Source: Patescibacteria group bacterium
GTDB taxonomy: Bacteria > Patescibacteriota > Microgenomatia > Levybacterales > UBA12049
DNA length: 64,000 nt
Reading direction: 5' to 3'
NCBI GenBank assembly: GCA_035946335.1
Contig: DASYZL010000006.1
Coordinates: forward strand, 175,664-239,663
The notes under the pieces are model-generated. The model was given only the letters and a program-made list of their open reading frames with translations. It made no database searches and was not told the DNA's origin. The translations under genes and the position numbers were made by a program. Shown one piece after another: positions 2,106 through 53,621 of this stretch (the stretch's first letter is position 1; the number at the start of each line of letters is the position of its first letter).

Positions 2106-4229
2106 TTAGTTTGGTTGTAATCCAGCTAAGAATTCTTCTGCGTTTTTACTTAAAACATCTCTTGGCTTTGATCCTTCTGCCGGCCCGATAAGTCCTGACT
2201 CTTCCAGTTGATCCAGTATCTTTGCTGCTCGCGAATAACCAATGGAAAGTTTACGCTGTAATAATGATGCTGATGCTTTATCATATTGGCACACAATGCG
2301 TACAGCTTCGTCAAAAAAACTGTCCCGTCCTTCACTGTTTCCTCCGGCAGATAACATCCCCCGTTTTCCTATCACAACTTGCTGCTGCGTAACCTCCTCT
2401 GTATAGTTAACAACCGGACTCTTTTCTTTTAAGAAAATTACCAATTTTTGCACTTCCTTTTCTGAAACAAATGTTCCTTGAACACGGGTAGGCTTTGCTT
2501 GGTCAGGTGGAATATATAACATGTCTCCTCGACCCAATAGTTTTTCTGCCCCAGGTCCATCCAGAATAACGCGCGAGTCAACAACAGATGACACATTGAA
2601 TGCAATACGACAGGGGATATTTGCCTTGATGAGTCCGGTAATAACATCAACGCTAGGCCGTTGCGTTGAAATAACTAAGTGGATCCCTGTTGCCCGTGCC
2701 ATTTGTGCAAGCCGTGCTATCGCGTCTTCAACCTCAACCGGCGCAAACATCATCAAATCCGCCAATTCATCAACCATAATGACAATCGAGGGAAGCGCCT
2801 GAAATCCTGACAGCTCATTATAACTATCAATATTTTTTACTCCGCGTTCTGCAAACAGCTTATACCTTCTGTCCATTTCTCCCATTGCCCATTTTAATGC
2901 TGAGAGGATTTTTTCCGGTTCAACAATTACCGGCGTCAACAAATGAGGGATACCATTGTATCCAGTCATTTCAACGCGTTTCGGGTCAATCATGATAAAT
3001 TTCACTTCCTGTGGGGAAGCATGGAATAAAATGGATGCAATAAATGCATTGATAGCAACAGACTTTCCAGAACCGGTTGTTCCAGCAATCAACACATGCG
3101 GCATTTTGGTAATGTCAGCAGTAACGGGATTGCCTGATACATCAAGTCCAAGCGCAACAGTAAGTTTTGATTTTGCTTTCTGCATAAGATTTGATGAAAG
3201 CATGGCACGAAGATTGACAACTTCCAGTGACCTGTTCGGAATTTCAATGCCGACTAAACTTCGTCCTGGAATCGGCGCTTCGATACGTATTTGTCCGGTT
3301 GGCGCTTCTGTTGCTAAAGCTAAATCATTCGCTAATGACGTAATTTTTGACACTTTTGTTCCCAAAGCAATTTCTAGAGCGTACTGGGTAACAGCAGGAC
3401 CTAGGTTAACTTCTGCAACGCGTGCTGCGATACCAAAACTTTGCAATGTCTTTTCTATAACTGATGCAATTTTCTTGATGTCACCACGCTCTGCTTTTTG
3501 TCCGGGACTATCAGAAAGCAAATTGAGCTGCGGATACTCCCAGATACCACCATTAGTAAGCATATTTGTTACCAGTTTATCTGATATGAGATGTTGTTGC
3601 TCTTTTTTGTTCACTATAACGTCTTTTTTCGGCTTTTCGTCCCGGGCAAAAAGCGGTAATTTTTTCTTTTCTTTCTCAGATAAATCTTTTGTACCTAGCT
3701 GGCGGATAGTCATTTCCTTGTCTTTTGGTCGTCGAGATTTAAAAAGTCCAAAGGGAAGGACTTTCCCCATTGTCTTGAAACTCACCACAAATCCATGCAA
3801 TAGTTCATCAAGGGATGTATCAAAGAAAACAACAACGCCAACGAAACACCCTGCTATATAAACAATTGATGTACCGGCAACTCCTAAAATATCAGAAAGG
3901 ATCTGAAACAACCTGACCCCTATTACTCCCTCCCGCAAGAGTCCTGACAAAGCAACAAACGTAATGAAGTAGCCAATGGCTACGTGCGGACGGGAAAGGA
4001 AGAATTTAAAGCGCAGGAAGAAAAATCCCCAGAATAAAAAGACAAATGGAAACGCATATTCCATTGCGCCAAAATAATGAATAAGTATGGTATTAAGTGT
4101 AATAAATACTTCACCGGAATTGGTAAATGACAGAAAACCTAATAATGCTGCGACAAAAAAAAGAAGTGCGAACAAGGTAAAAACAGTATCATTTTTGAGT
4201 TTTAATTTGAATCTTCTCCTGCGTGCCAT
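2106..4229 (-). CDS. ftsK: DNA translocase FtsK/SpoIIIE
   Basis: N-terminal TM helices, Walker A (GTTGSGKSVAINA), and a C-terminal gamma winged-helix domain (LYDEAV...LQRKLSIGYSRAAKILDQLE). Confidence 0.9.
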   Translation of the reverse strand: MARRRRFKLKLKNDTVFTLFALLFFVAALLGFLSFTNSGEVFITLNTILIHYFGAMEYAFPFVFLFWGFFFLRFKFFLSRPHVAIGYFITFVALSGLLREGVIGVRLFQILSDILGVAGTSIVYIAGCFVGVVVFFDTSLDELLHGFVVSFKTMGKVLPFGLFKSRRPKDKEMTIRQLGTKDLSEKEKKKLPLFARDEKPKKDVIVNKKEQQHLISDKLVTNMLTNGGIWEYPQLNLLSDSPGQKAERGDIKKIASVIEKTLQSFGIAARVAEVNLGPAVTQYALEIALGTKVSKITSLANDLALATEAPTGQIRIEAPIPGRSLVGIEIPNRSLEVVNLRAMLSSNLMQKAKSKLTVALGLDVSGNPVTADITKMPHVLIAGTTGSGKSVAINAFIASILFHASPQEVKFIMIDPKRVEMTGYNGIPHLLTPVIVEPEKILSALKWAMGEMDRRYKLFAERGVKNIDSYNELSGFQALPSIVIMVDELADLMMFAPVEVEDAIARLAQMARATGIHLVISTQRPSVDVITGLIKANIPCRIAFNVSSVVDSRVILDGPGAEKLLGRGDMLYIPPDQAKPTRVQGTFVSEKEVQKLVIFLKEKSPVVNYTEEVTQQQVVIGKRGMLSAGGNSEGRDSFFDEAVRIVCQYDKASASLLQRKLSIGYSRAAKILDQLEESGLIGPAEGSKPRDVLSKNAEEFLAGLQPN

Positions 4230-4246
4230 TGGTATTATTATACACC

Positions 4247-5902
4247 TTACATGTCAATGATGATGGGAAGAATAAGTGGCTTACGTTTGTACTGCTGATG
4301 TAATGTTTTCTCAATGGTTTCGCTGAGAAGCTTGCGCATAACAACGGGTTTTATCTGTGTCGATTGCATGGAGAGTGTTTTACGCAGTGTATTGACAATA
4401 AATCGTTGCATTTCCTGTGTGTCTTCGCTTATGCCCTTGAAAATGACCTCTACTGGTTGCAAAAGTTCTTTTGTATTTCCGTCAATCGTTGCAATAACAA
4501 CTATCATGCCTTCTGATGAAAGTTTTTGTCGGTCAAGCAATACATACTCTTCAACTTTTTCTCCGCTAATCTCATCAAGATATACTGTCCTGATCGGAAT
4601 TTTTTTACCAAACCGGATCATAGAGGACGAAATGGTAATCTCCTGCCCATCTTCTCCTATCATAATGACATTATTCTGATAGCCAAATCGTTTTGCGATT
4701 TGCTGATATGCTCCCATATGCTTCTGAGTACCGCTGGTGGGAATAACGTATCGGGGTTGTACGAGAGAAAGGAGAAGTAACATATCTTGTTCGCTACCAT
4801 GACCGGAAACATGAAAATCAGGCGTGATATCACTATACAATACAGTCGCACCAACTTTAGTAATTGCGTCAATTAAAGCATTAACCAATACTTCGTTTCC
4901 GGGAATGGTGTCTGCTGAAAAAATAACCATATCTTGACTACTGAGTTTTACATCGCGGTGGATTCCTTCTGCAATTCGTGTCATTGAAGAGTTTTCCTGT
5001 CCCTGACTGCCGGCAACAAGTAACAATAAATCCTTATCTCGTACTTGTTTTATTTGATCCAATGATACTTCCATACCTTTTGGTAACTGTATCAATCCTT
5101 TCTGTTTGGCAATTTCCACTGTGTTAATAAGTGACCTCCCAACAAAGCATACCCGCTTTTTAAGCATAGTTGCCGCATCGATTGCCTGCTTAATTCGATT
5201 GATATTTGACGAGTACGTGGTGATAAGGCATTTACCGCTACATTCCCTCATTGCATCGGCAAAATGTTTCTCCAGCCCTGCTTCTGATGGCGTGTATCCT
5301 TTACGCTCGCTCCCTAAACAATCTGTCACTAAGGCCAAAACGCCATCACTACCGATTCGGGCGATCTGGGCGAAATCAGTTCTTTTCCCGTCATATGGAG
5401 TCAGATCAAATTTATAATCGCTGCCGTGATAGATCGTCCCAATTGGGGTTTTTATCACAATATGTGCAGTATCCGGAACAGAATGTGTCACACGGATAAA
5501 GCTTGCTGAAAATACGCCAAGTTTTACTTCTTGTCCCTTTTCGAATGTTACTTCCTGCACCTTTTTATTGACACCAAATTCATTCAGCTTTTCATTAGCC
5601 AGCGCGGCAGTAAAGGAAGTAGCAAAAATGGGAAAATCTGGCAGTTGCGGGAGGAGAAACGGTAGCGCGCCCATATGATCTTCATGCCCATGGGTGATAA
5701 GCATTCCGACGATTTTGCTTTTTGTGTTTTTCAGATAGGTGATGTCCGGAAGCAGAAGCTCAACTCCAAGCATAGTTTCGTCAGCAAAACCAATACCACA
5801 GTCAACAAGTAAAATCTGTCCGTCATACTCGTAAACATACATATTTTTTGTGACATCACCACAGCCGCCGAGAGGTAAAAATGAAAGGTAATTATTGTTC
5901 AT
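4247..5902 (-). CDS. rnj: Ribonuclease J (metallo-beta-lactamase / beta-CASP)
   Basis: N-terminal LGGCGDVTKNMYVYE with the HGHEDHMGALP motif. Length 551 aa. Confidence 0.9.
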   Translation of the reverse strand: MNNNYLSFLPLGGCGDVTKNMYVYEYDGQILLVDCGIGFADETMLGVELLLPDITYLKNTKSKIVGMLITHGHEDHMGALPFLLPQLPDFPIFATSFTAALANEKLNEFGVNKKVQEVTFEKGQEVKLGVFSASFIRVTHSVPDTAHIVIKTPIGTIYHGSDYKFDLTPYDGKRTDFAQIARIGSDGVLALVTDCLGSERKGYTPSEAGLEKHFADAMRECSGKCLITTYSSNINRIKQAIDAATMLKKRVCFVGRSLINTVEIAKQKGLIQLPKGMEVSLDQIKQVRDKDLLLLVAGSQGQENSSMTRIAEGIHRDVKLSSQDMVIFSADTIPGNEVLVNALIDAITKVGATVLYSDITPDFHVSGHGSEQDMLLLLSLVQPRYVIPTSGTQKHMGAYQQIAKRFGYQNNVIMIGEDGQEITISSSMIRFGKKIPIRTVYLDEISGEKVEEYVLLDRQKLSSEGMIVVIATIDGNTKELLQPVEVIFKGISEDTQEMQRFIVNTLRKTLSMQSTQIKPVVMRKLLSETIEKTLHQQYKRKPLILPIIIDM

Positions 5903-41838: not shown

Positions 41839-44307
41839 TTATGATGTCTTCATGAATGAAACAAACAAGAAATTGAGCGGTACGAGCGTAACAGGTCGTC
41901 GCGTTTTCGTGTATGGGTATACATACTGATTTATGATTGGGTTTTGTTTCATCCCTTCTTGGCCATTTGCTTGCAATTTGGAAGCAACATATGGCGTATA
42001 GGTAAGCGTAAAGGAAGGAAGTTCTACGTAATTGCGGATTAACTGCGCATTCATGTCTACAACATAGGGCGTGTTCGGAAGAAGAGTGTTGGGGGGAAGA
42101 TTAATACCAAAGCGTGATTGTGGATTTGTTACGGTTGTATATGGCTCGGAGCACTGTTCTGGATCAGTATTTGTACAATCCTCATTCGTCAATGTCAGCG
42201 TTACTGTTGATTGGTTCGCTGCAATCCCATAGAATGTTGGCGAAGAAACTGAAGTTGTATAATCTGTTTGTATTTGATCCGGCTGAAGGGAAGAGATAGA
42301 TGGATCACCAATGCCAGTTATATTAAGTATCGTTAACGGGAAAAGGGCTTGATTATCAACCGTCTGGTATGAATTAACCCGTACATAGAGAGAGTCACTC
42401 CCCAGAGAATGACCTGATTTATCAACTGCGACCACTTTCCACGCATAAGTTCCTGATAACGCCTTCCCTCCTGTTGCAAATGGTGTTTCTGATGACTCTT
42501 TTGCATAAACAACAATATGAGAACTTTCCTGATCATACTTTGCGCGAAAACCTGTTGTATCGTATGTACCATTATTTGTTGCATTGCTCAAATATTGATT
42601 CCTCATGGAATTTTCAAGATTGGTACTCACTGAAGCAAAATCAGGGGGAATATTATCAAGGTACAACTTCCAGGAAGATGTGCCTGCCTGCCGTACCCAG
42701 ACTTGATACTTTTGTAGATTATCGCGCATGTGTGCGCGCTGGGTATTAACAGAAAAATCAAATGACGGGTACGGTGTATCAACGTCACTGTTATCGTAAG
42801 GGGCGTTGAGGGTGAAGGGACTGAAAAAAAATGCATAAGGACTGCTATCACCGTTCGTATCGAGGGCTCGGACAACAACTGTGTAACCAGGTGTACTATT
42901 ACTATTTGCTAAAGGGTCAAATGCCAAGGTAAATGGTTCTGTATTTAAACGGAATGCCCCATTCACTGGCGTTGATTCCTGCCAACTATCCCCATTTGCA
43001 GCATATTGTACATCGGCAACAGTATAAGGACTTGGTGCCGTTGCCGTTCCGTTTATTATTATCGTATCATCGGGATTTGTTGTAAGATTGTTTGCAACAG
43101 ATACTGACGGGTTTTGCAAATTATTTTGGTAGATGAGAACACGATTATTCAGAGAATCTGCGACAGCAAGTTGAGTGTGATTAGAAAAAGCACCCTTCGG
43201 CGAAGACATTGTTGCCGGACCGATACCTCCTGCATTTGCTGATGAAGATGTAAAATTTTGTTGCCCAATAACAATGTTTGCAGCAGTAGCATTGTTGAAA
43301 GGAATTGCATTAAATGCAAGCACTCTATTCGCCTGGATATCTGAAACATAGAAGATACCATTCGAACTTGTTGCGTCAGTAGTAATACGAAGCGGCTGGA
43401 GTGATTGCGCAGAAATTGTTGCAGAAGTGTTTGCCGTGAAACTTGTTTGTCCAAGTACCACATCAGCAAAAATATTGGTACTTGTCGGCTCCGAAAGAAA
43501 AATAAGGACACGATAATTATTGGTGTCAGAAATAAGAAGCGATCCATTGTCAATGGTAATTCCTCGAGGATTACTCAGTGTGTTTCCGTTAACGCCTCCA
43601 GTATTGACAGTCACCGTACTGGTATCTGGTTGTCCAATAACAAAGTCTGCCGGAAGCGCTGAAGTAGAAGGAAAATTCAAATATCCTAAAACTCTATTAT
43701 TTCCAGCGTCTGCAATATACAACTTTGCACCATCTGAGGTTACATCTGCCGGGTTTGATAAGGATCTTGCACTCACTCCTCCGCTGTTTGCCGTACAAGT
43801 TGTAAATGAAGATTGTCCAAGCACATAATTTGCGCTTGGACCATTTTGAGTTGGTATGCCATTAAAAACTAATACACGATTATTGTTAGCATCTGCAACA
43901 AATAATTTGCCTCCTGTATAAAATATGCCCCCGTCTCCAAGATTAAATTTGCTTTGTGTACACCCTGATGTTTTTGTCGTGAAATCTGGCTGCCCAATCA
44001 CTACATCGGCTGCCTGATTATTCACACTTGGGATACTATTATAGACAAGTATCCTGTTATTCACAGCGTCTGCAACAAGCAACTGTGACCCGACAATCAA
44101 TGCCGCAGAAGGACTACTCATAGATTGAGCAGAAGTAGAACCGCCTTGATTTGCCTGAGACGAAATAAAATCTTTTTGTCCGATAACAACAGCTGCGGAA
44201 GCACTTGACGTATAGGCATGAGCAGCAGAAGGTGAAAGGAAGAAAAAAAGAAAAAAAAGTACAAGAAAAAAAACATAGTAGATTTTTTGGTACGAAATAT
44301 ACCCCAT
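41839..44307 (-). CDS. Secreted NHL-repeat beta-propeller protein with a large C-terminal domain
   Basis: Signal/TM segment, then six repeats containing the D/N-x-NNRVL motif (NNRILVYN, NNRVLVFN, NNRVLGY, NYRVLIF, ANRVLAFN, NNRVLIYQ). Start taken at MGYISYQ. Confidence 0.7.
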   Translation of the reverse strand: MGYISYQKIYYVFFLVLFFLFFFLSPSAAHAYTSSASAAVVIGQKDFISSQANQGGSTSAQSMSSPSAALIVGSQLLVADAVNNRILVYNSIPSVNNQAADVVIGQPDFTTKTSGCTQSKFNLGDGGIFYTGGKLFVADANNNRVLVFNGIPTQNGPSANYVLGQSSFTTCTANSGGVSARSLSNPADVTSDGAKLYIADAGNNRVLGYLNFPSTSALPADFVIGQPDTSTVTVNTGGVNGNTLSNPRGITIDNGSLLISDTNNYRVLIFLSEPTSTNIFADVVLGQTSFTANTSATISAQSLQPLRITTDATSSNGIFYVSDIQANRVLAFNAIPFNNATAANIVIGQQNFTSSSANAGGIGPATMSSPKGAFSNHTQLAVADSLNNRVLIYQNNLQNPSVSVANNLTTNPDDTIIINGTATAPSPYTVADVQYAANGDSWQESTPVNGAFRLNTEPFTLAFDPLANSNSTPGYTVVVRALDTNGDSSPYAFFFSPFTLNAPYDNSDVDTPYPSFDFSVNTQRAHMRDNLQKYQVWVRQAGTSSWKLYLDNIPPDFASVSTNLENSMRNQYLSNATNNGTYDTTGFRAKYDQESSHIVVYAKESSETPFATGGKALSGTYAWKVVAVDKSGHSLGSDSLYVRVNSYQTVDNQALFPLTILNITGIGDPSISSLQPDQIQTDYTTSVSSPTFYGIAANQSTVTLTLTNEDCTNTDPEQCSEPYTTVTNPQSRFGINLPPNTLLPNTPYVVDMNAQLIRNYVELPSFTLTYTPYVASKLQANGQEGMKQNPIINQYVYPYTKTRRPVTLVPLNFLFVSFMKTS

Positions 44308-44388
44308 ACCTTTTTTATAGCAGAAAAGAGAGAGAATAGTTAATGCCCATTTTCGTTTTTCTTTTTTTCCTTTACAATAAAGCAATAT

Positions 44389-46155
44389 ATGAAAACACTC
44401 AGAAGAATTATCTTACATGAATTAAGGCCATATCTCCTTGTATTAAGCTTTATTCTTTTCCTCATGCTCGTCGTTGTCGCCTTACAAGCAGCAGCACCGT
44501 GGCCATTTAAGTTTCTTATCGATAATGTTCTAGGAGATGAAACAATCAGCACCAAAACATTTATCGGATGGCTGATTTCATTAGTCCCTTCTCAAGAGCT
44601 TTTAGGATACATTGTTGTTTTGATATTTTTTCTTATCAGCATGGGATCAAGTATTGTTGAATACTTCCAGAGCAAATTACTTCGTAAGGTTATCCGGGGT
44701 ATTATTTTTGATTTTTCAAAAAGTGCTTTTTCACAATTAGAAGGATTTGATATGGGATTTTTCCGCAATCAAGACATAGGAGATTATATTTATCGATTGA
44801 ATTATGATGTTGGCGCTTTGGGTGAACTCATTGAAGAGGGAATTTTACCTATTATTTCCTCTGCATTTTACTTAATTTTTACTGCTATCTTAATGTTTAC
44901 CATCAGCTATAAATTAGCACTAATAGCTTTTCTTGCTCTCCCGTTTCTCGCAACCGGTTTATACATATTTAATAAACGCATTGAGGTGGGAACAAAACGC
45001 TCAGAGTTTTCAAATAGTACTGTTTTTACCTTTGTGCAACAGATACTCTCACAACTGAAGATTGTCCAAGTATTTTCCCAAGAAAAAAATGAATCGAAAG
45101 AATTTAATCTGAAGCTAAAAAAATCATTACAAAATGAGCTGTTGCTATACAACTTAAATTTTCTGCTCAGTCTTTTAGTCGGGGCTATCATTGCAATTAG
45201 CTATTCTCTTATTATAGGTATCGGCATTCATTTATTTTTCTTAGGGGAATTCTCAACTGGCCTTCTTATTGTTTTTATCTTTTATCTTGATAATTTGACA
45301 CAACCATTACTGGATATCATTTATGCTTCCAGTGCCTTCAAAGAGTCTTATGTACGTATTGAACGAATGAAAGATTTTTTTAATAAACGGAATCAACTCC
45401 ATAACACAGGGATCATAAAGGAGCTCTCTGATACAACGATTCAATTTCATAACGTCATTTTGGAAGGAAATCAAGGAATGAAAATTCTCCATAATATCTC
45501 ATTTACTATTCCGGAAAATAAAATGACCGTATTGGTCGGAGTAAGCGGATCAGGGAAAACATCAGTTATTTCACTTATCCCTCGCCTTCTGAGTAATCCA
45601 CAGCATGGAGAAATTTTGCTGGGCGATAAAAATATTAATACATATGATGTTATGACGCTTCGCAAGAACATTGCATATGTACCACAAGAAAATCTTCTTT
45701 TTAACCAATCAATATTTGAGATCATTGCATTTGGTGTTCCACATGCAACTCTTGCTGAAGTAAAGTACGCTGCAAAACTTGCATACGCTGATGAATTTAT
45801 CGAAAAACACCCACAAGGATATAACTTCCGGGTCGGAGATGAAGGAAATTATCTTTCAGGAGGTCAACGACAAAGACTTATGATTGCCAGAGCATTTATG
45901 AGAAAAACTGCGAAAATACTTATTTTCGATGAACCACTATCTTCTCTTGATATCCAAACAAGGAAAGATGTGTGGAAAAGTATTAAAACGTTTGCAGAAG
46001 GAAAAACAACGATTCTCGTCTCAAATGTGTTGGATGTTATTACGAACGCTGACCAGATACTCTTCTTAAATGATGGAAGACTTGCAGAACAAGGGAATCA
46101 CAAAAAGTTGCTAGAAAAATCAAATTTGTATACACTATTTGTAGAGAAAGAATAA
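44389..46155 (+). CDS. ABC transporter, fused permease and ATPase (type I exporter, MsbA/bacteriocin-exporter-like)
   Basis: Six TM segments, Walker A GVSGSGKTS, signature LSGGQRQRLMIARAF, and Walker B ILIFDEPLSSLD. Confidence 0.85.
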   Translation: MKTLRRIILHELRPYLLVLSFILFLMLVVVALQAAAPWPFKFLIDNVLGDETISTKTFIGWLISLVPSQELLGYIVVLIFFLISMGSSIVEYFQSKLLRKVIRGIIFDFSKSAFSQLEGFDMGFFRNQDIGDYIYRLNYDVGALGELIEEGILPIISSAFYLIFTAILMFTISYKLALIAFLALPFLATGLYIFNKRIEVGTKRSEFSNSTVFTFVQQILSQLKIVQVFSQEKNESKEFNLKLKKSLQNELLLYNLNFLLSLLVGAIIAISYSLIIGIGIHLFFLGEFSTGLLIVFIFYLDNLTQPLLDIIYASSAFKESYVRIERMKDFFNKRNQLHNTGIIKELSDTTIQFHNVILEGNQGMKILHNISFTIPENKMTVLVGVSGSGKTSVISLIPRLLSNPQHGEILLGDKNINTYDVMTLRKNIAYVPQENLLFNQSIFEIIAFGVPHATLAEVKYAAKLAYADEFIEKHPQGYNFRVGDEGNYLSGGQRQRLMIARAFMRKTAKILIFDEPLSSLDIQTRKDVWKSIKTFAEGKTTILVSNVLDVITNADQILFLNDGRLAEQGNHKKLLEKSNLYTLFVEKE

Positions 46156-46176
46156 TAAAGGGGGTGATAAAATCGT

Positions 46177-46284
46177 ATGGCAAAGCGCGAACGACAAAAA
46201 TCGCAACCAAGCAGACCTCAATCCAGGCCAAGTTCGTCTCGACCAGTTCCAAGAACAGGAAGAGTACGGGTAAAAGGGAGGTAA
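46177..46284 (+). CDS. Small, highly basic peptide (35 aa)
   Basis: Strong RBS GGGGGTGATAAAAtcgtATG. Product MAKRERQKSQPSRPQSRPSSSRPVPRTGRVRVKGR. Confidence 0.4.
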   Translation: MAKRERQKSQPSRPQSRPSSSRPVPRTGRVRVKGR

Positions 46285-46365
46285 GTAAAGCTATTGACAA
46301 AAGGATATGTTTCATGTTGCTATATGTAGTGAGAGGAATATATCTTTGAAAGGAGGTGATAAAAC

Positions 46366-46464
46366 ATGGCAATAAAAAGAACAGTTAAAACAGCACCAAA
46401 AAAGAAACCATCAGTTGCTAAAAAATCAGTAATCCATACTCCAGCAAGGCGTAAAAAAAGATAA
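46366..46464 (+). CDS. Small, highly basic peptide (32 aa), paralogous leader to the previous gene
   Basis: RBS GGAGGTGATAAAAcATG. Product MAIKRTVKTAPKKKPSVAKKSVIHTPARRKKR. Confidence 0.4.
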   Translation: MAIKRTVKTAPKKKPSVAKKSVIHTPARRKKR

Positions 46465-46566
46465 GTACTGATTCATCCTAAATCCACTGTCCATATTTGT
46501 AAGTGGATTTTAGGTATAATAGGAGTTTTTAAAGAAAATCATTGAACAAGAAGAAAGGAGGAAAAA

Positions 46567-46740
46567 ATGAAAAATAATGGCGCTGCGGGCGGTGTAGTTT
46601 ATGGATTAGGTTTTATAGGAGCAATCATTTATTACATTCAACATGCGACTACATTCTGGATTGGTGTCTTAGGTATTGTAAAAGCCATTATTTGGCCTGC
46701 ACTTCTTATTTACCGATTGCTTGGGTTCCTAAAAATGTGA
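46567..46740 (+). CDS. Small hydrophobic membrane peptide (57 aa)
   Basis: RBS GAAAGGAGGaaaaaATG. Product MKNNGAAGGVVYGLGFIGAIIYY... Confidence 0.4.
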   Translation: MKNNGAAGGVVYGLGFIGAIIYYIQHATTFWIGVLGIVKAIIWPALLIYRLLGFLKM

Positions 46741-46757
46741 AAGAAAATCCGAGCGTA

Positions 46758-46787
46758 CAACTCAATTACATAATTGCAATTGAGTTA
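46758..46787 (+). terminator. Hairpin downstream of the small-peptide genes
   Basis: CAACTCAATT-acataattgc-AATTGAGTTa, followed by a T-rich stretch. Confidence 0.3.
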
Positions 46788-46947
46788 TTGTGTAATATTT
46801 TAGTCATTTTTTCAAATTTCACAAAATATAGTAAATTCTTTGATGCTCTGATACAATAAACGAAATTTAATGTAAAGTCTACTTGACATTCTCCTCTTTT
46901 TATTTTACCCTTTTATAAACCATAAAATGCAATGAAAAATCTCATGC

Positions 46948-47160
46948 ATGAAAGAATATATCATCAACAATGTATCTGATCTCAGGAAAGAAAAAGATAT
47001 TACACAGGAAACATTTGCTCATGCCTTGGGAGTTTCAAGGCAAACAGTTGTTGCAATTGAGAAAGGAAACTATATTCCTTCCCTTTTACTTGGAATAAGA
47101 ATAGCACAATATTTCAAGAAAAGGGTTGAAGACATATTCATCTACGCTTATGAAAAATAA
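46948..47160 (+). CDS. XRE-family HTH transcriptional regulator
   Basis: QETFAHALGVSRQTVVAIEKG HTH. Confidence 0.75.
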   Translation: MKEYIINNVSDLRKEKDITQETFAHALGVSRQTVVAIEKGNYIPSLLLGIRIAQYFKKRVEDIFIYAYEK

Positions 47161-47515
47161 ATTTATTGGTGAAGCTATTATCTCAGTAGTACTTATCGCA
47201 TTGTTGGTCTTTTTCTTGAATCCTTTAGAGCTTGTGATGCCACAATCAGTGCACATGATCATGATTCCATTCCTCGTTGTTTTATTTATCGTTTTTACAG
47301 GAGTACTTTGGAAAGAAACTCCAGGAGATGAACGTGAACAACTTCATAAGTTTATCGCATCTCGCTTTGCGTATTTTGCAGCAGTTGCAACCCTTATTAT
47401 CGGTATAGTTATGCAAAGCTTCGAAAAAGCAATTGACCCCTGGCTTATTATAACAATCTGCGTTGCTTTACTTGCAAAAATTACTGGCCTAATCTATGGT
47501 TATTTTAGACATTAA
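47126..47515 (+). CDS. Membrane protein (3 TM), partner of the XRE regulator
   Basis: Hydrophobic 129-aa ORF overlapping the regulator's stop. Confidence 0.45.
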   Translation: MKTYSSTLMKNKFIGEAIISVVLIALLVFFLNPLELVMPQSVHMIMIPFLVVLFIVFTGVLWKETPGDEREQLHKFIASRFAYFAAVATLIIGIVMQSFEKAIDPWLIITICVALLAKITGLIYGYFRH

Positions 47516-47533
47516 TAAAGGAGGTGAACAAAC

Positions 47534-47776
47534 ATGAACAACCAACTAATGTGGCTACTAGTTATCGTTGCGCTTCTTGTTGGAGCATTTGGTGGTTATT
47601 ATTACGAAAAATCCAAACTCACGAACCAAATGATGATGGTGGAATCCAGTCTTCAGCAACAGTTGAATGATGCAAAGATGAAGACCGATCAACTGATGAA
47701 AATGCAAACCACCCCTGTACCATCAGGGATGATGCATGTCACGATGACCCCAAAAAGTGTAATGATGCAAAAGTAA
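47534..47776 (+). CDS. Methionine-rich membrane-anchored small protein
   Basis: Strong RBS AAGGAGGTGAacaaacATG, an N-terminal TM helix, and 14 Met in 80 aa (MMMVE, MMHVTM, VMMQK). Confidence 0.55.
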   Translation: MNNQLMWLLVIVALLVGAFGGYYYEKSKLTNQMMMVESSLQQQLNDAKMKTDQLMKMQTTPVPSGMMHVTMTPKSVMMQK

Positions 47777-47836
47777 TTATATTTTGGGGGCTGGGAGATC
47801 CAATCCCCTAAAAGGGGTTTATTCGATAAGTAATAT

Positions 47837-49570
47837 ATGATTTTACTACTATTATTTTCATTTTTAGCAGGTTTTGTTACCATCCTGGCCCCATGTATTT
47901 GGCCTGTGCTTCCTATAGTGCTTTCTTCATCTCTTGCTAGAGGACATCAGAGACCATTGGGAATCACCCTTGGAGTAATACTTAGCTTTACGATTTTCAC
48001 GCTTTCGGTTTCCTCTCTTGTTCGGTTGTTCCATCTTGATCCAAATGTCCTTCGTATATTTGCGGTCAGTATTATCATTTTTCTCGGGCTAACGATGATC
48101 ATTCCACCACTAACAACGAAATTTGAGCTTTTCTTGTCAAGATTATCAAATACAATAGGTCAAAATGCCGCAAACAAACAAGGTTCTGGATTTTTACCAG
48201 GATTTATTACCGGGCTTTCTCTTGGTATTGTTTGGAGTCCCTGTGCTGGACCAATTCTAGCAACTATTGCAGCACTCGCGGCAACTGGACAGGTATCGTT
48301 TCAAGTTGTTTTAGTGACCCTTGCTTACGTTACAGGGGCTGGAATTCCACTCTTTGCCTTTGCCTATGGTGGACAACAATTTATGACTAAAGCACGGGGA
48401 ATGAATAAATATACAGGAAGGGTTCAACAAGTATTTGGAGTCATCATGATCCTTGCAGCTATTGCAATTTTTACCAATTATGATCAAACGCTTCAATTAC
48501 AACTCCTGAACGAATTCCCTGCGCTGGGGACTGCGGTTAATGGATTTGAAAACAGTAGCTTTGTTACAAACCAACTTAATCTCTTAAAAGGAACGCAGTC
48601 AATACAAAGTCCTGATACGAGTGGACTTTTTAACGCAAACCAACCTGCTCCTAATTTTATTGGCATTGATAAATGGTTGAATACAGATAAACCGTTAACA
48701 ATCAACAGCCTGAAAGGTAAAGTCGTATTAGTTGATTTTTGGACCTACACCTGTATTAACTGCATTCGCACTCTTCCTCATGTGACCAGTTGGTATGACA
48801 AATATAAAGATAATGGATTTATAGTTATTGGCGTCCATACACCAGAGTTTCAGTTTGAACACGACAGCAATAATGTCGTTAACGCAATAAAAATGTATAA
48901 CATCCATTATCCAGTTGCCCAAGACAATGAATATGCTACATGGAATAACTATAACAATGAATACTGGCCAGCTGAATATCTTATAGATGCAAAGGGCCTT
49001 ATCAGACGTACCCATTTCGGCGAGGGAGAGTATAATCAAATGGAAATGGCAATACGCTCTCTTCTTCAGGAAGCTGGGCAAAAAGTCACAGCAACACTTG
49101 ATACAAAACCCGATCAGACACCTCAATCTCAGATATCTCCTGAAACATACCTCGGCTCCAAACGTATGCAATATTATTTCCCTTCAGGAAATGTAGGTAA
49201 TGGTATACAAACATTTTCTTTATCAAATAATCTCAGCCAGAACAGCTTTAGTTATGGCGGGCAATGGACAATAACTGACGAGTATGCAATTTCAGGAAAC
49301 AATGCAGCGTTAAATTATAACTTTTCCGCGAGTAAAGTATTTATCATTCTTCGTCCTGGTTCTGCAAAAAACCCAATAGTTAAGGTATTTCTCGATGGAA
49401 AAATTATTGACCCTTCCCTTGCAGGAAGCGATGTGAAAAACGGTATCATAACCATTAACAGAGATAGATTATATAGTATCGTAGACCTCAAGGGTCAGAC
49501 CGGAAATCATATTCTCAAACTCGAATTCCAAACGTCTGGGGTACAAGCATATACATTTACCTTTGGATAA
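47837..49570 (+). CDS. CcdA/DsbD-like transmembrane thiol-disulfide electron transporter fused to an extracytoplasmic thioredoxin-like (TlpA/ResA) domain and a C-terminal beta domain
   Basis: A cytochrome-c-biogenesis DsbD-type membrane domain with Cys in TM1 (APCIWPV) and TM4 (SPCAGP), followed by a redoxin WTYTCINCIR CxxC motif. Confidence 0.8.
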   Translation: MILLLLFSFLAGFVTILAPCIWPVLPIVLSSSLARGHQRPLGITLGVILSFTIFTLSVSSLVRLFHLDPNVLRIFAVSIIIFLGLTMIIPPLTTKFELFLSRLSNTIGQNAANKQGSGFLPGFITGLSLGIVWSPCAGPILATIAALAATGQVSFQVVLVTLAYVTGAGIPLFAFAYGGQQFMTKARGMNKYTGRVQQVFGVIMILAAIAIFTNYDQTLQLQLLNEFPALGTAVNGFENSSFVTNQLNLLKGTQSIQSPDTSGLFNANQPAPNFIGIDKWLNTDKPLTINSLKGKVVLVDFWTYTCINCIRTLPHVTSWYDKYKDNGFIVIGVHTPEFQFEHDSNNVVNAIKMYNIHYPVAQDNEYATWNNYNNEYWPAEYLIDAKGLIRRTHFGEGEYNQMEMAIRSLLQEAGQKVTATLDTKPDQTPQSQISPETYLGSKRMQYYFPSGNVGNGIQTFSLSNNLSQNSFSYGGQWTITDEYAISGNNAALNYNFSASKVFIILRPGSAKNPIVKVFLDGKIIDPSLAGSDVKNGIITINRDRLYSIVDLKGQTGNHILKLEFQTSGVQAYTFTFG

Positions 49571-49573
49571 GCT

Positions 49574-49780
49574 ATGAATAAGTACGTATTATTTTTTCTT
49601 CTTTTCTTGGGAATTGTCATGTTATTTTATCTTTTTTTTACAGCAAATTCCATACAAAAAGAGTCAGCTAGCAGGAATAAGTCCAAATATCTTTGCGACA
49701 GTGCTGTTACGGATTGTCATAGGAAAAGTACTCCTGAAATTCCAAAAGGAGTCTGTATTCCAGGAAGCAAATGTACATAA
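49574..49780 (+). CDS. Small membrane protein with a Cys-rich extracytoplasmic tail
   Basis: TM helix followed by CDSAVTDC...CIPGSKC. Confidence 0.35.
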   Translation: MNKYVLFFLLFLGIVMLFYLFFTANSIQKESASRNKSKYLCDSAVTDCHRKSTPEIPKGVCIPGSKCT

Positions 49781-49798
49781 AAGAATTTGTTGGCAGAA

Positions 49799-50338
49799 AT
49801 GAAGAAAAGAATAGTTATTATCAAAATTGGCGCAGGCATAACTGTTGCAGGAATACTTTTCCTATTACTCCACAATGCTTCTTCCAAACCTCAAACCACT
49901 TTTCAATCAGAAACGAAAATTATTTCTGGTTCTTTTGATACAAGAAACATGAAAACTGATGCGCAGTGGAGAAAAATATTAACTCCTGAGCAATATACCA
50001 TTCTTCGCCAAGCTGGAACAGAAGTTCCTTATACGGGAAAATTAGAATACGAACAGAGAAAAGGAACCTATTACAGTGTAGGATGCAATAAGCCTATTTT
50101 TCGCTCTGAGCAAAAGTATGAGTCTGGAACAGGTTGGCCAAGTTTCTGGGCGCCAATCAATCCTAACGCCTTAGTCCTAAGAGAAGATAATAGTATTCCT
50201 GTGGAACCTCGCATTGAAGTGCTTGATACGTGCGGTAACCACCTTGGTCACGTGTTTGATGATGGCCCGCAACCAACGGGAAAAAGATATTGCATGAATT
50301 CAATTGCAATGTATTTTGTGCCAGATAAAAAGCAGTAA
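49799..50338 (+). CDS. msrB: Membrane-anchored peptide methionine-(R)-S-oxide reductase MsrB
   Basis: N-terminal TM anchor, then a SelR domain with GWPSF, HLGHVFDDGPQPTGKRYCMNS (catalytic Cys). Confidence 0.85.
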   Translation: MKKRIVIIKIGAGITVAGILFLLLHNASSKPQTTFQSETKIISGSFDTRNMKTDAQWRKILTPEQYTILRQAGTEVPYTGKLEYEQRKGTYYSVGCNKPIFRSEQKYESGTGWPSFWAPINPNALVLREDNSIPVEPRIEVLDTCGNHLGHVFDDGPQPTGKRYCMNSIAMYFVPDKKQ

Positions 50339-50414
50339 ACGAATTATTCTTTTGAGAGAGGATATCGTAAACAGTGAAAATACGACCGCATTGTTAGTGT
50401 AACTAATAGGTAGT

Positions 50415-51635
50415 ATGCTTTACCATATGGCTACCTTTTTAACACTACTAAAATCAAAAAAATACTATGTAATAATTACTATTATCGTTTTTCTATTCAT
50501 CATTCTTCGAGCAATCCTTTTGACAAGTCCAAACACTGAACTTACTTATACAGCTAAGATGGAAAACTTGATTGATACCGTACAAGTCAGTGGAACATAT
50601 TCTACAGCTTCTCAGATACCAGTGGCCTCTCCGTCGAATGGTGTAATAGATAAGATATTTGTTAGCAATAACAGCCAGGTAAAAAAGGGTGATCAATTAT
50701 TTCATGTCCAGAGCACTGCAACAGTTGACCAACAAAAAGCTGCGTATGCTGCGTATCTTGCAGCAAACAGTACCGTACAAGCTGATAATGCAACCCTTTA
50801 TAGTCTTCAGTCTACGATGTATGCTGCCTGGCAGGCATATATAAATCAAGCAACGAGCGCTACCTACCAAAATAGCGACGGCTCTCCCAACGCTACCAAC
50901 CGAGTCGAAACAACGTTCACTGTCCCTCAGGCTGCCTGGTTGGCAGCGGAGGCAAATTATAAAAATCAGCAGGCAGTTATTAATAAAGATCAAGCAGCAC
51001 TTTCTGCTGCGCAACAAACGTATGCAGAAACGCAAAGCGTTACTGTCATTGCCCCAGTTGGCGGAACTGTCGTGAATCTTCTTGCGCAAAGCGGCGATCA
51101 GGTAGCTGCCAATACTTCAGCAATCACTGTCATTGGCACAAATACAGGTCAAGCAGCAGTATCATCTTCCACTCCCCAATCAATCCTTATTATTGCAAAT
51201 CTTTCAAATCCTTATCTTACAGCAGATATAAGTGAAGACTATGCCACAAGAATCGTAAAAGGACAAAAGGCATCTGTTGTTTTTGATGCGATGAAAGATA
51301 AAACATTTTCCGCAACTGTTGAAAACATTGATACTGTGGGGACAAATACGCAGGGAGTAATTACCTATAAAGCCAGAATCGCTACGGATAATCTTTTATC
51401 AAAAATAAAACCTGACATGACAGCACTTATTACCATTGAAACGCTTCGAAAAAATAATGTAATTGACGTACCCAATAGCGCCATTGTTACAAGGAGTAAT
51501 ATGTCCTATGTTGAACAAGCTAACACACATAAACTCATCCCAGTATTAGTCGGAGCAAGAGGTGTCATAAAAACTGAAATTACAAGCGGGCTATATGCTG
51601 GAACAGTTCTTGTTGCAAATCCAAACTCAAATTAA
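50415..51635 (+). CDS. HlyD-family periplasmic adaptor (membrane fusion protein) of a MacAB-like efflux system
   Basis: TM anchor, lipoyl-like hairpins and a long Q/A-rich coiled coil. Confidence 0.75.
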   Translation: MLYHMATFLTLLKSKKYYVIITIIVFLFIILRAILLTSPNTELTYTAKMENLIDTVQVSGTYSTASQIPVASPSNGVIDKIFVSNNSQVKKGDQLFHVQSTATVDQQKAAYAAYLAANSTVQADNATLYSLQSTMYAAWQAYINQATSATYQNSDGSPNATNRVETTFTVPQAAWLAAEANYKNQQAVINKDQAALSAAQQTYAETQSVTVIAPVGGTVVNLLAQSGDQVAANTSAITVIGTNTGQAAVSSSTPQSILIIANLSNPYLTADISEDYATRIVKGQKASVVFDAMKDKTFSATVENIDTVGTNTQGVITYKARIATDNLLSKIKPDMTALITIETLRKNNVIDVPNSAIVTRSNMSYVEQANTHKLIPVLVGARGVIKTEITSGLYAGTVLVANPNSN

Positions 51636-51640
51636 ATAAT

Positions 51641-52912
51641 ATGGTATGGAAAGACAATGCGTTATTAGTTGGCTTTTTCCTGGCAGTTCGAGAAATAAAA
51701 CGAAGCAATCCTTGGACTAGCATACTAATCATACTTATTATCAGCCTTACTTTCTTTAATATGCTCTTTATCGGTGGACTTTTTTTGGGGATCATTGGAG
51801 GGTTTTTAGGAGCGTTTCAAACAAATTACTCAGGGAATGTCCTTATAAGTCCAGCGATAAATAAAAATGAAATTTCAGATACAGATACCGTTATCTCTAT
51901 AGTAAAAAGTCTCCCTACCTACAGATCTTTATCTGCACGCTTTGTTACATCTGCAATACTTGCATACAACTATCAAAATAAGGTAAGACCGACGGATGTT
52001 TCTGAAAGTGCTGCAGGGCAACTTGTTGGTATTAATCCTATTGCTGAGGATAGAACAGCACAACTGTCAAAAGCAATCATTGCAGGATCATATCTTACGC
52101 CATCTGATTCCGACGAGATTTTAGTTGGTTCAACATTAACACAGAAATATGCAACAGTCAGAAATGCAGGGAACACGGTCGGATCAAGAGTTTTAGTTAC
52201 AGCAGATATTGGATCTCGAGTTCTTTTAATGGTAAACGGTATTCAGAAAGAGGTAACGATAAAAGGAATAGTAACAACCAATGTTCCTACTGTTGATGCT
52301 CGCATATACATGGTTGATTCAACAGTCAGACAGTTGATGGGAAATACCAGTTTAAACGCAAATGAAATAGCGATTTCACTTACCCCTCGTGCTTCCGATA
52401 CAGATGCAAAAAATTATATTATTAGAAATCTCGCAAATAGAAATGATGTATTAGTACAAACATCCGCCGACACATTACCCGCAGGTTTATCCAGCGAATT
52501 ACAGATATTTTCAAAATTAGATAATCTTATTGGAGGAATAGCGCTTGTTATCAGTTCCATTACGATATTTATCGTGATTTATGTGAATGCGGTAACACGA
52601 AGAAAATTTATAGGGATTCTGAAAGGCATAGGAATTTCAAGTCGAGCAATAGAAATCTCTTATGTTTTTCAGGCTCTTTTCTATGCTATTGGAGGCACAA
52701 TCCTAGCAAGCGTCCTGATTATGGGTCTGATTGTTCCCTATTACGATGTGCACCCGTTTAATATAGCAGGTATTCCTGGAACGCTTGCTATAACAATGAG
52801 TGATATTATTCCCCGGGCTATTTTACTAACAGTGGTATCAGGAATTTTTGGTTTTATTCCTGCATGGCTTGTTACAAAACAAAATACACTGGATGCGATA
52901 TTGGGAAGATAA
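51641..52912 (+). CDS. ABC transporter permease, FtsX/MacB family
   Basis: TM1, a large periplasmic domain, then the FtsX 3-TM bundle. Confidence 0.8.
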   Translation: MVWKDNALLVGFFLAVREIKRSNPWTSILIILIISLTFFNMLFIGGLFLGIIGGFLGAFQTNYSGNVLISPAINKNEISDTDTVISIVKSLPTYRSLSARFVTSAILAYNYQNKVRPTDVSESAAGQLVGINPIAEDRTAQLSKAIIAGSYLTPSDSDEILVGSTLTQKYATVRNAGNTVGSRVLVTADIGSRVLLMVNGIQKEVTIKGIVTTNVPTVDARIYMVDSTVRQLMGNTSLNANEIAISLTPRASDTDAKNYIIRNLANRNDVLVQTSADTLPAGLSSELQIFSKLDNLIGGIALVISSITIFIVIYVNAVTRRKFIGILKGIGISSRAIEISYVFQALFYAIGGTILASVLIMGLIVPYYDVHPFNIAGIPGTLAITMSDIIPRAILLTVVSGIFGFIPAWLVTKQNTLDAILGR

Positions 52913-52913
52913 T

Positions 52914-53621
52914 ATGATTCGAGTTAGTAATCTTGTGAAAAAATTCCGCATGGGAGAAACAGAACTTATTGCTCTCAAGCACTTAAGCTTTGCGGTCCCC
53001 ACTGGTCAATTTCTTGCGATAACTGGAAGGTCAGGTGCTGGAAAAAGTACATTACTCTATAACATGAGCCTTCTGGACAAACCAACTGAGGGAGCTATCA
53101 CCATTGATGACCAGAATATTACGGAAATTGAGGATAAAAAACGGGTAACATACCGTCTGAGTAATTTTGGTTTTATTTTTCAGGAATACGCACTTTTACC
53201 AACACTAAGCTCTATAGAGAATGTGATGCTTCCACTTATGATGGAGGGATTTGACAAAGCGTATGTTGAACAAGAGGCAAAAGAAGCATTAGAAAAGGTA
53301 GGATTGGGAGACAAACTTGATAATTTACCAAGTCAATTATCAGGTGGACAGCAACAAAGAGTCAGTATTGCAAGGGCAATTACCCACAATCCGAAAATAG
53401 TGTTTGCAGATGAACCAACAGCAAATCTTGATACAGAATCTTCGATGCAGATTCTTGATATATTTCTTGAACTTAATAAACAAGGTCAAACGATTATCAT
53501 GGTTACCCATGAACCAGAATACGCAAAGATTGCACATCGGGATATAGAATTACTTGATGGAGACATCGTTCGAGATACGGCACAAAAGCCAAAAAAACTA
53601 AAAGATATCCATCATGACTAG
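52914..53621 (+). CDS. ABC transporter ATP-binding protein (MacB/LolD-like)
   Basis: Walker A GRSGAGKST, signature LSGGQQQRVSIARA, Walker B IVFADEPT. Start at MIRVSNL. Confidence 0.85.
   Translation: MIRVSNLVKKFRMGETELIALKHLSFAVPTGQFLAITGRSGAGKSTLLYNMSLLDKPTEGAITIDDQNITEIEDKKRVTYRLSNFGFIFQEYALLPTLSSIENVMLPLMMEGFDKAYVEQEAKEALEKVGLGDKLDNLPSQLSGGQQQRVSIARAITHNPKIVFADEPTANLDTESSMQILDIFLELNKQGQTIIMVTHEPEYAKIAHRDIELLDGDIVRDTAQKPKKLKDIHHD

Follow-up and report, generated by a model that had tools for sequence, protein, structure and literature searches.

A DipZ-centred gene cassette in a Patescibacteria genome as a candidate system for surface methionine-sulfoxide repair and oxidant buffering

A 64,000-nucleotide stretch of DNA from a Patescibacteria group bacterium (assembly GCA_035946335.1, contig DASYZL010000006.1, positions 175,664 to 239,663 of the forward strand; the whole stretch is called the window below) carries, at 46948-50338 on its plus strand, six co-directional and tightly packed open reading frames (ORFs) centred on dipZ. 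They encode an XRE-family regulator, a membrane protein with four transmembrane (TM) helices (the 4-TM protein), a small methionine-rich (Met-rich) protein, DipZ with its thioredoxin (Trx) domain, a small protein with four cysteines and an anchored methionine sulfoxide reductase (Msr) of the MsrB type. An original prediction had read this cluster as an envelope methionine-sulfoxide repair module, and all six ORFs are indeed found where it had placed them. The XRE and membrane-protein genes overlap by 11 nt, the gap between dipZ and the gene of the four-cysteine protein (cys68) is 3 nt, that between cys68 and msrB is 6-18 nt, and every one of the six ORFs is conserved in other genomes. The features of the cassette are:

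46948..47160, plus strand: XRE-family helix-turn-helix regulator, 70 aa, first gene of the cassette (Pfam HTH_3, E=2.1e-12)
47150..47515, plus strand: 4-TM membrane protein, 121 aa; the ORF runs from a TTG at 47126, and orthologs indicate the ATG at 47150 as the start
47534..47776, plus strand: Met-rich protein with an N-terminal anchor, 80 aa (orthologs, Shine-Dalgarno sequence, coding-type substitutions)
47837..49570, plus strand: DipZ, 577 aa (DsbD_TM, AhpC-TSA/Redoxin and Thioredoxin_10)
47837..48478, plus strand: DipZ residues 1-214, six-helix membrane domain of the DsbD/CcdA type (Pfam DsbD_TM, E=1.7e-12)
48611..49111, plus strand: TlpA-like thioredoxin domain of DipZ with C306-I-N-C309 in WTYTCINC (AhpC-TSA, Redoxin and Thioredoxin_8 matches)
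49136..49570, plus strand: C-terminal Thioredoxin_10 domain of DipZ, with the stop codon (PF17991, E=1.9e-31)
49574..49780, plus strand: small anchored four-cysteine protein, 68 aa, with C41, C48, C61 and C67 and one TM helix
49787..50338, plus strand: N-terminally anchored MsrB, 183 aa from a TTG or 179 aa from the ATG at 49799 (SelR, E=2.6e-41)

Two surveys provide the comparisons used here: one centred on dipZ, with 80 loci from species-representative genomes and 1878 non-nested ORFs, and one centred on MsrB, with 80 metagenome loci and 1053 ORFs. Individual loci carry L numbers. An ORF was called Met-rich when any 30 of its residues held at least 6 methionines.

Genes of the cassette

By its sequence, the 577-aa protein is an ordinary DipZ of the Rv2874 family. 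Its ectodomain (residues 259-525) matches the solved ectodomain of Mycobacterium tuberculosis DipZ (2HYX/5CYY) at E=1.5e-71, SOQ1 (7DJJ) is the second-best structural relative of its Trx domain (E=1.4e-25), and its membrane part matches the CcdA structures 5VKV and 2N4X. The prediction had correctly recognised a DsbD/CcdA-type domain joined to a thioredoxin with the WTYTCINC motif (residues 302-309); it had overlooked the third domain, a carbohydrate-binding-module (CBM)-like beta-sandwich without Cys, which matches Thioredoxin_10 over its full length (1-142 of 142). It had also taken the single-polypeptide CcdA-Trx fusion for a variant not obviously described. The match to the Rv2874 ectodomain, the NCBI name of the identical sequence ('cytochrome c biogenesis protein DipZ [Patescibacteria group bacterium]') and the existence of at least 7994 homologs below 1e-10 rule out a new kind of fusion. 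To our knowledge, c-type cytochromes are generally absent from Patescibacteria, and the present host probably has no cytochrome c to mature. The literature credits DipZ with electron transport in disulfide correction and in the maturation of cytochrome c (PMC3781833; PMC7479077), and SCINC has been reported as the DipZ motif (PMC6107167). Rv2874 itself is presented as an electron transporter with an ectodomain made of a Trx-like domain and a CBM (Goldstone 2016 as cited in PMC7479077).

Four cysteines of DipZ are invariant in its homologs, namely Cys20 (APCIWP) and Cys136 (SPCAGP) in the membrane domain (12 homologs for this pair) and C306 and C309 in the Trx domain. Six hydrophobic segments are predicted in the membrane domain, and Lys plus Arg number 2, 3 and 4 in loops 1, 3 and 5 vs 1 and 0 in loops 2 and 4. 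These counts predict an N-out/C-out arrangement, and hence Trx and CBM domains that face outward. DipZ would pass electrons from cytoplasmic thioredoxin to extracytoplasmic substrates.

The last gene of the cassette encodes, by sequence, a bona fide MsrB: it scores 155 bits against TIGR00357 (cut-off 113) and matches PDB 2K8D at E=2.6e-38. The catalytic Cys169 lies in RYCMNS, the HLGHVF and GWPSF motifs are kept, and Cys169 and all catalytic-site columns are invariant among the 12 MsrBs that we aligned. Anchor and RYCMNS site had both been predicted, but the loss of the zinc site and of the resolving Cys had gone unnoticed. In the alignment with 2K8D, the first Cys of each CxxC pair is lost and Cys100 and Cys149 remain; in the homologs at L005 and L008 both Cys of each pair are gone. 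A zinc-less form is still compatible with membership in the MsrB family. The resolving Cys is likewise absent, the sequence reading GTGWPSF vs GCGWP or HCGWP in the cytoplasmic-type neighbours at L001 and L071, and this loss implies a 1-Cys mechanism. The enzyme looks like a zinc-less, 1-Cys MsrB. The sulfenic acid formed on a 1-Cys MsrB needs direct reduction by a thioredoxin-type partner, and the absence of both the resolving Cys and the zinc site is as expected for a 1-Cys enzyme that thioredoxin reduces directly.

The N-terminus of MsrB reads MKKR and is followed by a hydrophobic segment predicted as a TM helix, which by the positive-inside rule places the catalytic domain outside. The proposal that both the Trx and the MsrB domains lie outside the cytoplasm is in agreement with these topology estimates. 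This MsrB belongs to a subfamily recognisable from its N-terminal anchor and an ISG[ST]FD linker, and in seven of the eight distinct loci that encode such an enzyme its gene immediately follows dipZ (the window, L087, L089, L011, L008, L005/L013 and L091); L090 is the sole locus without dipZ. A conduit, an outward-facing thioredoxin and an outward-facing Msr are encoded together here, as seen in the gene order, in the predicted topology and in the recurrence of the arrangement.

The 80-aa Met-rich ORF is a genuine gene. Its ATG is preceded, at a distance of 7 nt, by a GGAGGTG Shine-Dalgarno sequence, and the TM helix recurs together with the Met clusters in five orthologs (51-96% identity). 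At L170, where the order XRE, 4-TM, Met-rich, DipZ is the same as in the window, the mismatches between the two Met-rich genes fall 24/13/38 over the three codon positions, a coding pattern, and 20 of 49 identical residues use different codons. Conservation of this ORF, on which the prediction depended, is borne out by the five orthologs, and its ribosome-binding site is strong. The protein had been credited with 17% Met; the count is 13 Met in 80 residues (16%), and 11 of them lie in a tail of 55 residues (20%) that also has 4 overlapping MM pairs, 1 His and 19% charged residues. Of the 197 window ORFs that reach 60 aa, it alone is Met-rich, and the chance of such a tail at the 2.1% Met frequency of this genome is about 1.7e-8. 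Jackhmmer searches with the 80-aa and the 68-aa proteins against the 80 dipZ loci returned no homologs, and orthologs of both came only from the large protein database. Between the Met-rich gene and dipZ, a G4/C4/G4 stretch at 47782-47817 has the potential for a hairpin with a TTTATT tract after it; shuffled sequences fold just as well (z=-0.64), and there is no sign of an attenuator.

The small Cys-rich membrane peptide of the original prediction is the 68-aa protein, which has four Cys and a single TM helix. At L087, dipZ and msrB flank an ortholog that keeps all four Cys. Codon-position mismatches for this gene are 25/16/30. A second homolog (P0126) follows a peroxiredoxin-like gene at L172. 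The protein is absent from L089.

The XRE and 4-TM genes had been listed as members of the cluster; that they form an integral, conserved part of the cassette had been missed. XRE orthologs (45-67% identity) stand beside dipZ at L011, L018, L020, L022, L028, L033, L082 and L170, upstream of it in seven of these loci and just downstream at L082, and Jackhmmer finds 4-TM homologs in 8 dipZ loci and at L170. Taken together, the pair (or, at contig ends, the membrane gene alone) adjoins dipZ at L011, L018, L019, L020, L022, L028, L033, L082 and L170, whether or not an msr gene adjoins as well. The 4-TM protein, predicted to be N-in/C-in, has a near-invariant M30 and an invariant P31 in its first outer loop (alignment A5), and its cytoplasmic loop has an invariant D60-E61-R62, H66 and R72. 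A Pfam scan of this protein gave sub-threshold noise only, with no family that covers it; from its sequence, a regulatory or sensing role is plausible.

Inverted repeats upstream of the XRE gene were compared in four loci for a conserved XRE operator and had nothing in common; a scan for promoters and terminators gave the same counts as shuffled sequence and is uninformative, and Rfam had zero matches in 46000-51000. A 12-bp inverted repeat (AACTCAATTACA / TGCAATTGAGTT) at 46759-46786, between a 57-aa membrane ORF (46567-46740) and the XRE gene, may be a terminator at the upstream boundary of the cassette.

Linkage of dipZ to msr genes and Met-rich segments

In nine of the 80 species-level dipZ loci, an Msr gene lies no more than about 1.5 kb from dipZ, in varying gene orders. 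Given one to three msr genes per genome, roughly 0.3 such adjacencies in 80 would be expected by chance. By the labels of the metagenome-assembled genomes (MAGs), the lineages concerned are Patescibacteria (including Levybacteria, Doudnabacteria and Saccharibacteria), Kryptoniota, Bacteroidetes, Omnitrophota, Gammaproteobacteria and one spirochaete. Seen from the other side, dipZ adjoins in five of the 80 MsrB-centred loci (L091, L103, L122, L154 and L168); several of these are dipZ-msrB-msrA operons, with Msr proteins that have hydrophobic N-terminal segments or Tat-like motifs. The two activities are also joined in single polypeptides, both confirmed by Pfam. At L169, MsrA is fused to a DipZ-type Trx domain and Thioredoxin_10 in a predicted lipoprotein with a lipobox-like N-terminus (LSVNAC), and at L130 an anchored DipZ-type Trx is joined to MsrB. 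Such fusions lend indirect support to a transfer of electrons from thioredoxin to Msr. The gene-neighbourhood check that had been called for is borne out, dipZ and msr being linked across phyla both by adjacency and by domain fusion.

Met-rich ORFs are concentrated at the same places. In the dipZ loci, 15 of the 1878 ORFs are Met-rich and 12 of these 15 are N-terminally anchored or secreted proteins that abut dipZ: five stand-alone proteins (in the window and at L018, L019, L071 and L013), six in which a Met-rich linker leads to a thioredoxin domain (PF00085, WCPTC; L019, L020, L022, L028, L032 and L035) and one in which it leads to Lipoprotein_15 (L011). In the MsrB loci, seven of the 1053 ORFs qualify, and six lie beside exported MsrB/MsrA or inside DipZ; they comprise four small proteins, secreted or anchored, next to exported MsrB/MsrA (L094, L137, L141 and L159) and two DipZ proteins in which a Met-rich linker directly precedes Trx (L154 and L168), the remaining one being YidC. 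The L169 fusion, too, has a Met-rich linker directly before its Trx domain. Outside the window, analogues of the 80-aa protein occur in all in 11 dipZ loci and in 4 MsrB loci. Across phyla, dipZ is associated with exported Msr genes and with Met-rich exported segments, and the association is statistically strong.

These segments contain 14-35% Met, 19-46% charged residues, 0-3% His and many MM pairs. The 80-aa protein is MrpX-like in composition, and msrB lies 2 kb downstream of its gene in the same direction. The analogy with MrpX, proposed at the outset, gains from the strong enrichment of similar Met-rich exported segments beside dipZ and exported Msr genes. The Met-rich proteins of other loci are analogous by position and composition, not demonstrably homologous, and searches of Pfam and NCBIfam gave no match for the Met-rich proteins, that of the window included, beyond a sub-threshold penta_MxKDx for the L141 protein. 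In nearly all segments the N-flank is at least as charged as the C-flank, which indicates an N-in/C-out orientation. The orientation of the 80-aa and 68-aa proteins is ambiguous, and an outside location is suggested by likeness to their neighbours: three of the five orthologs of the 80-aa protein (P0122, P0123 and P0125) have Lys in the short N-flank, and proteins in the equivalent position have exported domains and an N-flank more charged than the C-flank.

At L154:371-2230, L168:1260-3068 and L169:2704-4482 the Met-rich stretch (e.g. GMMMAMHDSTSGGAMMMSGGAMM) is N-terminal to Trx within the same polypeptide, so that in cis it takes the position that separate Met-rich proteins hold in trans.

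A proposed surface repair cycle and its alternatives

We hold it probable, by a modest measure, that the cassette is a DipZ-centred system for surface methionine-sulfoxide repair and oxidant buffering. Cytoplasmic thioredoxin would reduce the membrane Cys pair of DipZ (Cys20/Cys136), which would in turn reduce the outward TlpA-like Trx domain of the same protein (Cys306-x-x-Cys309). This domain would directly reduce the sulfenic acid on Cys169 of the anchored zinc-less 1-Cys MsrB, and MsrB would reduce Met-R-sulfoxide in envelope proteins. On the outside, the disordered 20%-Met tail of the 80-aa protein would serve as a preferred substrate and as a sacrificial oxidant sink of the MrpX kind that MsrB regenerates, and the XRE regulator and its 4-TM partner would act as the local control unit. 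We infer every electron-transfer step, and likewise that the Met-rich tail is oxidised and repaired and that the XRE/4-TM pair acts in regulation; the relay follows the precedents of CcdA/DsbD-Trx-MsrAB pathways, the MrpX-MsrP cycle and SOQ1.

Several observations weigh against this surface repair system. Elsewhere in the 64-kb window there is no MsrA, thioredoxin or copper ATPase, and the lack of MsrA limits local recycling to the R-epimer. An adjacent Msr gene is missing from 71 of the 80 DipZ loci and from every one of about 45 actinobacterial dipZ loci. The closest relatives with adjacent msr genes (L001/L007 and L170) have a convergent msrA-msrB pair of the cytoplasmic type, with a zinc site, CGWP and no anchor, of which DipZ cannot be the reductant, so that adjacency does not always mean direct partnership. 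The 80-aa protein has net charge 0 on both flanks, and the flank charges of the 68-aa protein are ambiguous too. Half of the Met-rich loci have no nearby Msr, the Met-rich stretch there being a linker to a second thioredoxin domain, and homologs of that second thioredoxin at L012 and L024 lack the linker. Copper-type ATPase or cupredoxin genes are present at two DipZ loci (L010 and L071).

There are three rival explanations. If DipZ were a general disulfide reductase or isomerase, it would serve many substrates as an envelope thiol reductase of the DsbD/CcdA kind, MsrB would be one client or a chance neighbour, and the Met-rich protein would take no part in redox chemistry, being a low-complexity anchor or linker specific to its lineage. 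This would sit well with the 71 loci that have no nearby Msr gene, with the dispensable Met-richness at L012 and L024, with the wide variety of dipZ neighbours (VKOR, fasciclin, cyclophilin) and with the roles described for DipZ in disulfide correction and cytochrome c maturation (PMC3781833; PMC7479077). It is nevertheless rather unlikely, as it leaves out of account the MsrA-Trx-Thioredoxin_10 and Trx-MsrB fusions, the pairing of the anchored MsrB subfamily with dipZ in 7 of 8 loci and the extreme enrichment of Met-rich ORFs at dipZ and MsrB loci (12 of 15 and 6 of 7). A cytochrome c function is, besides, improbable in a group that, as far as we know, generally has no c-type cytochromes. Copper handling would give the Met-rich tails and linkers another purpose: they would bind Cu(I), DipZ would keep copper thiols reduced or reduce Cu(II), as TlpA does for ScoI, and the MsrB adjacency would be secondary. 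Met-rich stretches are classic periplasmic Cu(I) ligands (cf. CueO), a heavy-metal P-type ATPase with HMBD lies near dipZ at L071, and at L010 an HMA-DsbD_2-cupredoxin protein and a copper-type ATPase are directly upstream of it. Yet copper genes occur in only these two of 80 loci and in none of the window cluster; copper sites are typically MxxM or M/H motifs, whereas the segments seen here are His-poor, with mostly MM pairs amid charged residues, and like segments stand beside exported MsrB/MsrA where there is neither DipZ nor a copper gene (L094, L137 and L141). We consider copper handling improbable.

A redox sensor is a further alternative, in which either the Met-rich tail or the conserved outer-loop Met-Pro of the 4-TM protein would be a switch, Met oxidation would report envelope oxidative stress to XRE, and MsrB and DipZ would reset it. 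The XRE/4-TM pair is conserved with dipZ in nine further loci, the outer loop of the 4-TM protein has the near-invariant M30 and the invariant P31, the DER..H..R pattern of its cytoplasmic loop is invariant, and regulatory Met oxidation reversed by a DipZ-like Trx system has been reported for LCNP/SOQ1; against this, the XRE protein has no obvious sensing domain, the four loci compared gave no conserved operator, and a tail with 20% Met exceeds what a switch requires. We give this sensor only a slim chance. Among these explanations, the surface repair system is the one that we prefer. In a bolder form it would hold that DipZ, exported MsrB/MsrA and Met-rich tails or linkers make up a widespread, thioredoxin-driven catalytic cycle of surface oxidant scavenging as the thiol-powered counterpart to MrpX-MsrPQ, that this cycle, and not the maturation of cytochrome c, is the main physiological task of DipZ in many bacteria that do not respire, Patescibacteria among them, and that the XRE/4-TM pair, with its conserved outer-loop Met-Pro, is a new envelope oxidant sensor in control of the cycle; this we regard as possible but doubtful.

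The surface repair system would matter for several reasons. DipZ is a very large family (thousands of homologs) with physiological substrates that are essentially obscure, and its members are routinely annotated 'cytochrome c biogenesis' even where cytochromes c are probably absent; a reproducible link to exported Msr and Met-rich segments offers a concrete, testable function. Bacteria of the candidate phyla radiation have minimal genomes and an epibiotic lifestyle, and a surface antioxidant module would hint at the stresses they face. The compact XRE/4-TM pair is, in addition, a candidate sensor of envelope oxidative stress.

Some features of the surroundings deserve mention in their own right. 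Directly downstream of msrB, at 50415-53621 on the plus strand, the gene of a 406-aa adaptor of the MacA/HlyD type (RND_mfp, 1.7e-29; MacA, 2e-15) comes first; next are those of a 423-aa protein whose N-terminal segment is hydrophobic and of a 257-aa protein bearing a Walker A motif (GRSGAGKST); by sequence these genes look like a MacAB-like efflux system, none of which was seen beside dipZ in the other loci. On the minus strand, at 41839-44385 and 3.4 kb upstream, is the gene of an 848-aa secreted protein whose sequence looks like a series of NNR(V/I)L repeats; an ABC transporter gene separates it from the cluster. Eukaryotic DipZ-like Trx domains are fused to NHL propellers (SOQ1, NHLRC2), and the presence of a repeat protein near dipZ may well be a coincidence. 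In the Levybacteria locus L028, a fasciclin-domain protein (PF02469, 1.4e-39; 3999-4592) lies just upstream of XRE, 4-TM, Met-rich-Trx and DipZ, and ORFs with N-termini that read like trxA (WCGPC) and trxB are found 3-4 kb upstream (1199-2589). The dipZ gene of M. tuberculosis is flanked by the fasciclin proteins MPT70 and MPT83, and the DipZ-fasciclin link may be ancient. At L010 (414-5769), which like L071 is a Patescibacteria locus, the HMA-DsbD_2-cupredoxin fusion precedes split ORFs that resemble the P-type ATPase of L071, the first with an HMA-like MHCASC motif, and at L071 (5050-8541) the ATPase is accompanied by a VKOR homolog.

Comparison with known systems

The components (DipZ, MsrB, an MrpX-like peptide) are each of a known kind. 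Their combination, with DipZ as the dedicated reductant of a zinc-less 1-Cys anchored MsrB, Met-rich anchors or linkers and an XRE/4-TM pair, appears undescribed: a search of the searchable literature for 'DipZ' together with 'methionine sulfoxide reductase' gave no relevant DipZ-Msr link, and DipZ has no entry in a 2026 review table of extracytoplasmic Msr systems (PMC13488963). With Rv2874 DipZ of M. tuberculosis the window protein shares all three domains (DsbD/CcdA, TlpA-like Trx with C-I-N-C and CBM-like Thioredoxin_10); what differs is the Patescibacteria host and the setting of dipZ within an XRE / 4-TM / Met-rich / DipZ / 4-Cys / MsrB cassette.

CcdA/DsbD-Trx-MsrAB pathways are established in several bacteria, according to the same review (PMC13488963, Table 1). 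The CcdA-Etrx-MsrAB2 system of Streptococcus pneumoniae likewise combines a co-encoded CcdA-type conduit, extracytoplasmic thioredoxin and anchored Msr (PMC3914529; PMC13488963), and related systems occur in S. gordonii, F. nucleatum and H. influenzae. The window departs from it in joining CcdA, Trx and CBM in one polypeptide, in having a single-domain zinc-less 1-Cys MsrB and not an MsrAB fusion, and in adding a Met-rich protein and the XRE/4-TM pair.

Another parallel is PilB of Neisseria (Trx-MsrA-MsrB, reduced by DsbD), in which an extracytoplasmic TlpA-like Trx is dedicated to Msr recycling. The MsrB domain of PilB is without zinc. L169 and L130 encode fusions of the PilB type, whereas in the window Trx is fused to the membrane transporter and not to Msr, and MsrA is lacking. 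In Arabidopsis SOQ1, the DipZ-like Trx domain is reported to feed Msr activity of the thylakoid lumen with reducing equivalents (preprint 10.1101/2024.11.01.621559) and to power the reduction of methionine sulfoxide in a specific Met-containing target, with CcdA as the proposed electron source. SOQ1 differs in its NHL domain and in a Cys-containing C-terminal domain with Msr activity of its own; the C-terminal domain of the window DipZ is free of Cys, and a separate gene encodes a canonical MsrB.

For the Met-rich protein the closest parallel is MrpX, encoded with MsrP(YedY)Q in Azospira suillum. MrpX has 20% Met, 44% charged residues, a signal peptide and poor conservation, and its proposed role is sacrificial oxidation followed by enzymatic regeneration (PMC4436054). 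Both systems pair a poorly conserved, charged, Met-rich small protein, exported in Azospira and putatively so here, with an extracytoplasmic Msr (periplasmic in Azospira) and a dedicated, here putative, regulator pair, and the composition of the Met-rich segments found here matches that of MrpX. The differences lie in the enzyme, which is a thiol-based MsrB that DipZ would feed vs a molybdenum MsrP fed by quinol-linked MsrQ, in the Met-rich protein, which is membrane-anchored and 19% charged in the window vs soluble MrpX, and in the regulators, XRE and 4-TM vs SigF/NrsF. The idea of a sacrificial peptide has so far been shown only for MrpX with molybdenum MsrP in Proteobacteria, and the present cassette would widen it to thiol-based Msr enzymes in Patescibacteria, Kryptoniota, a Bacteroidetes-labelled MAG and a spirochaete.

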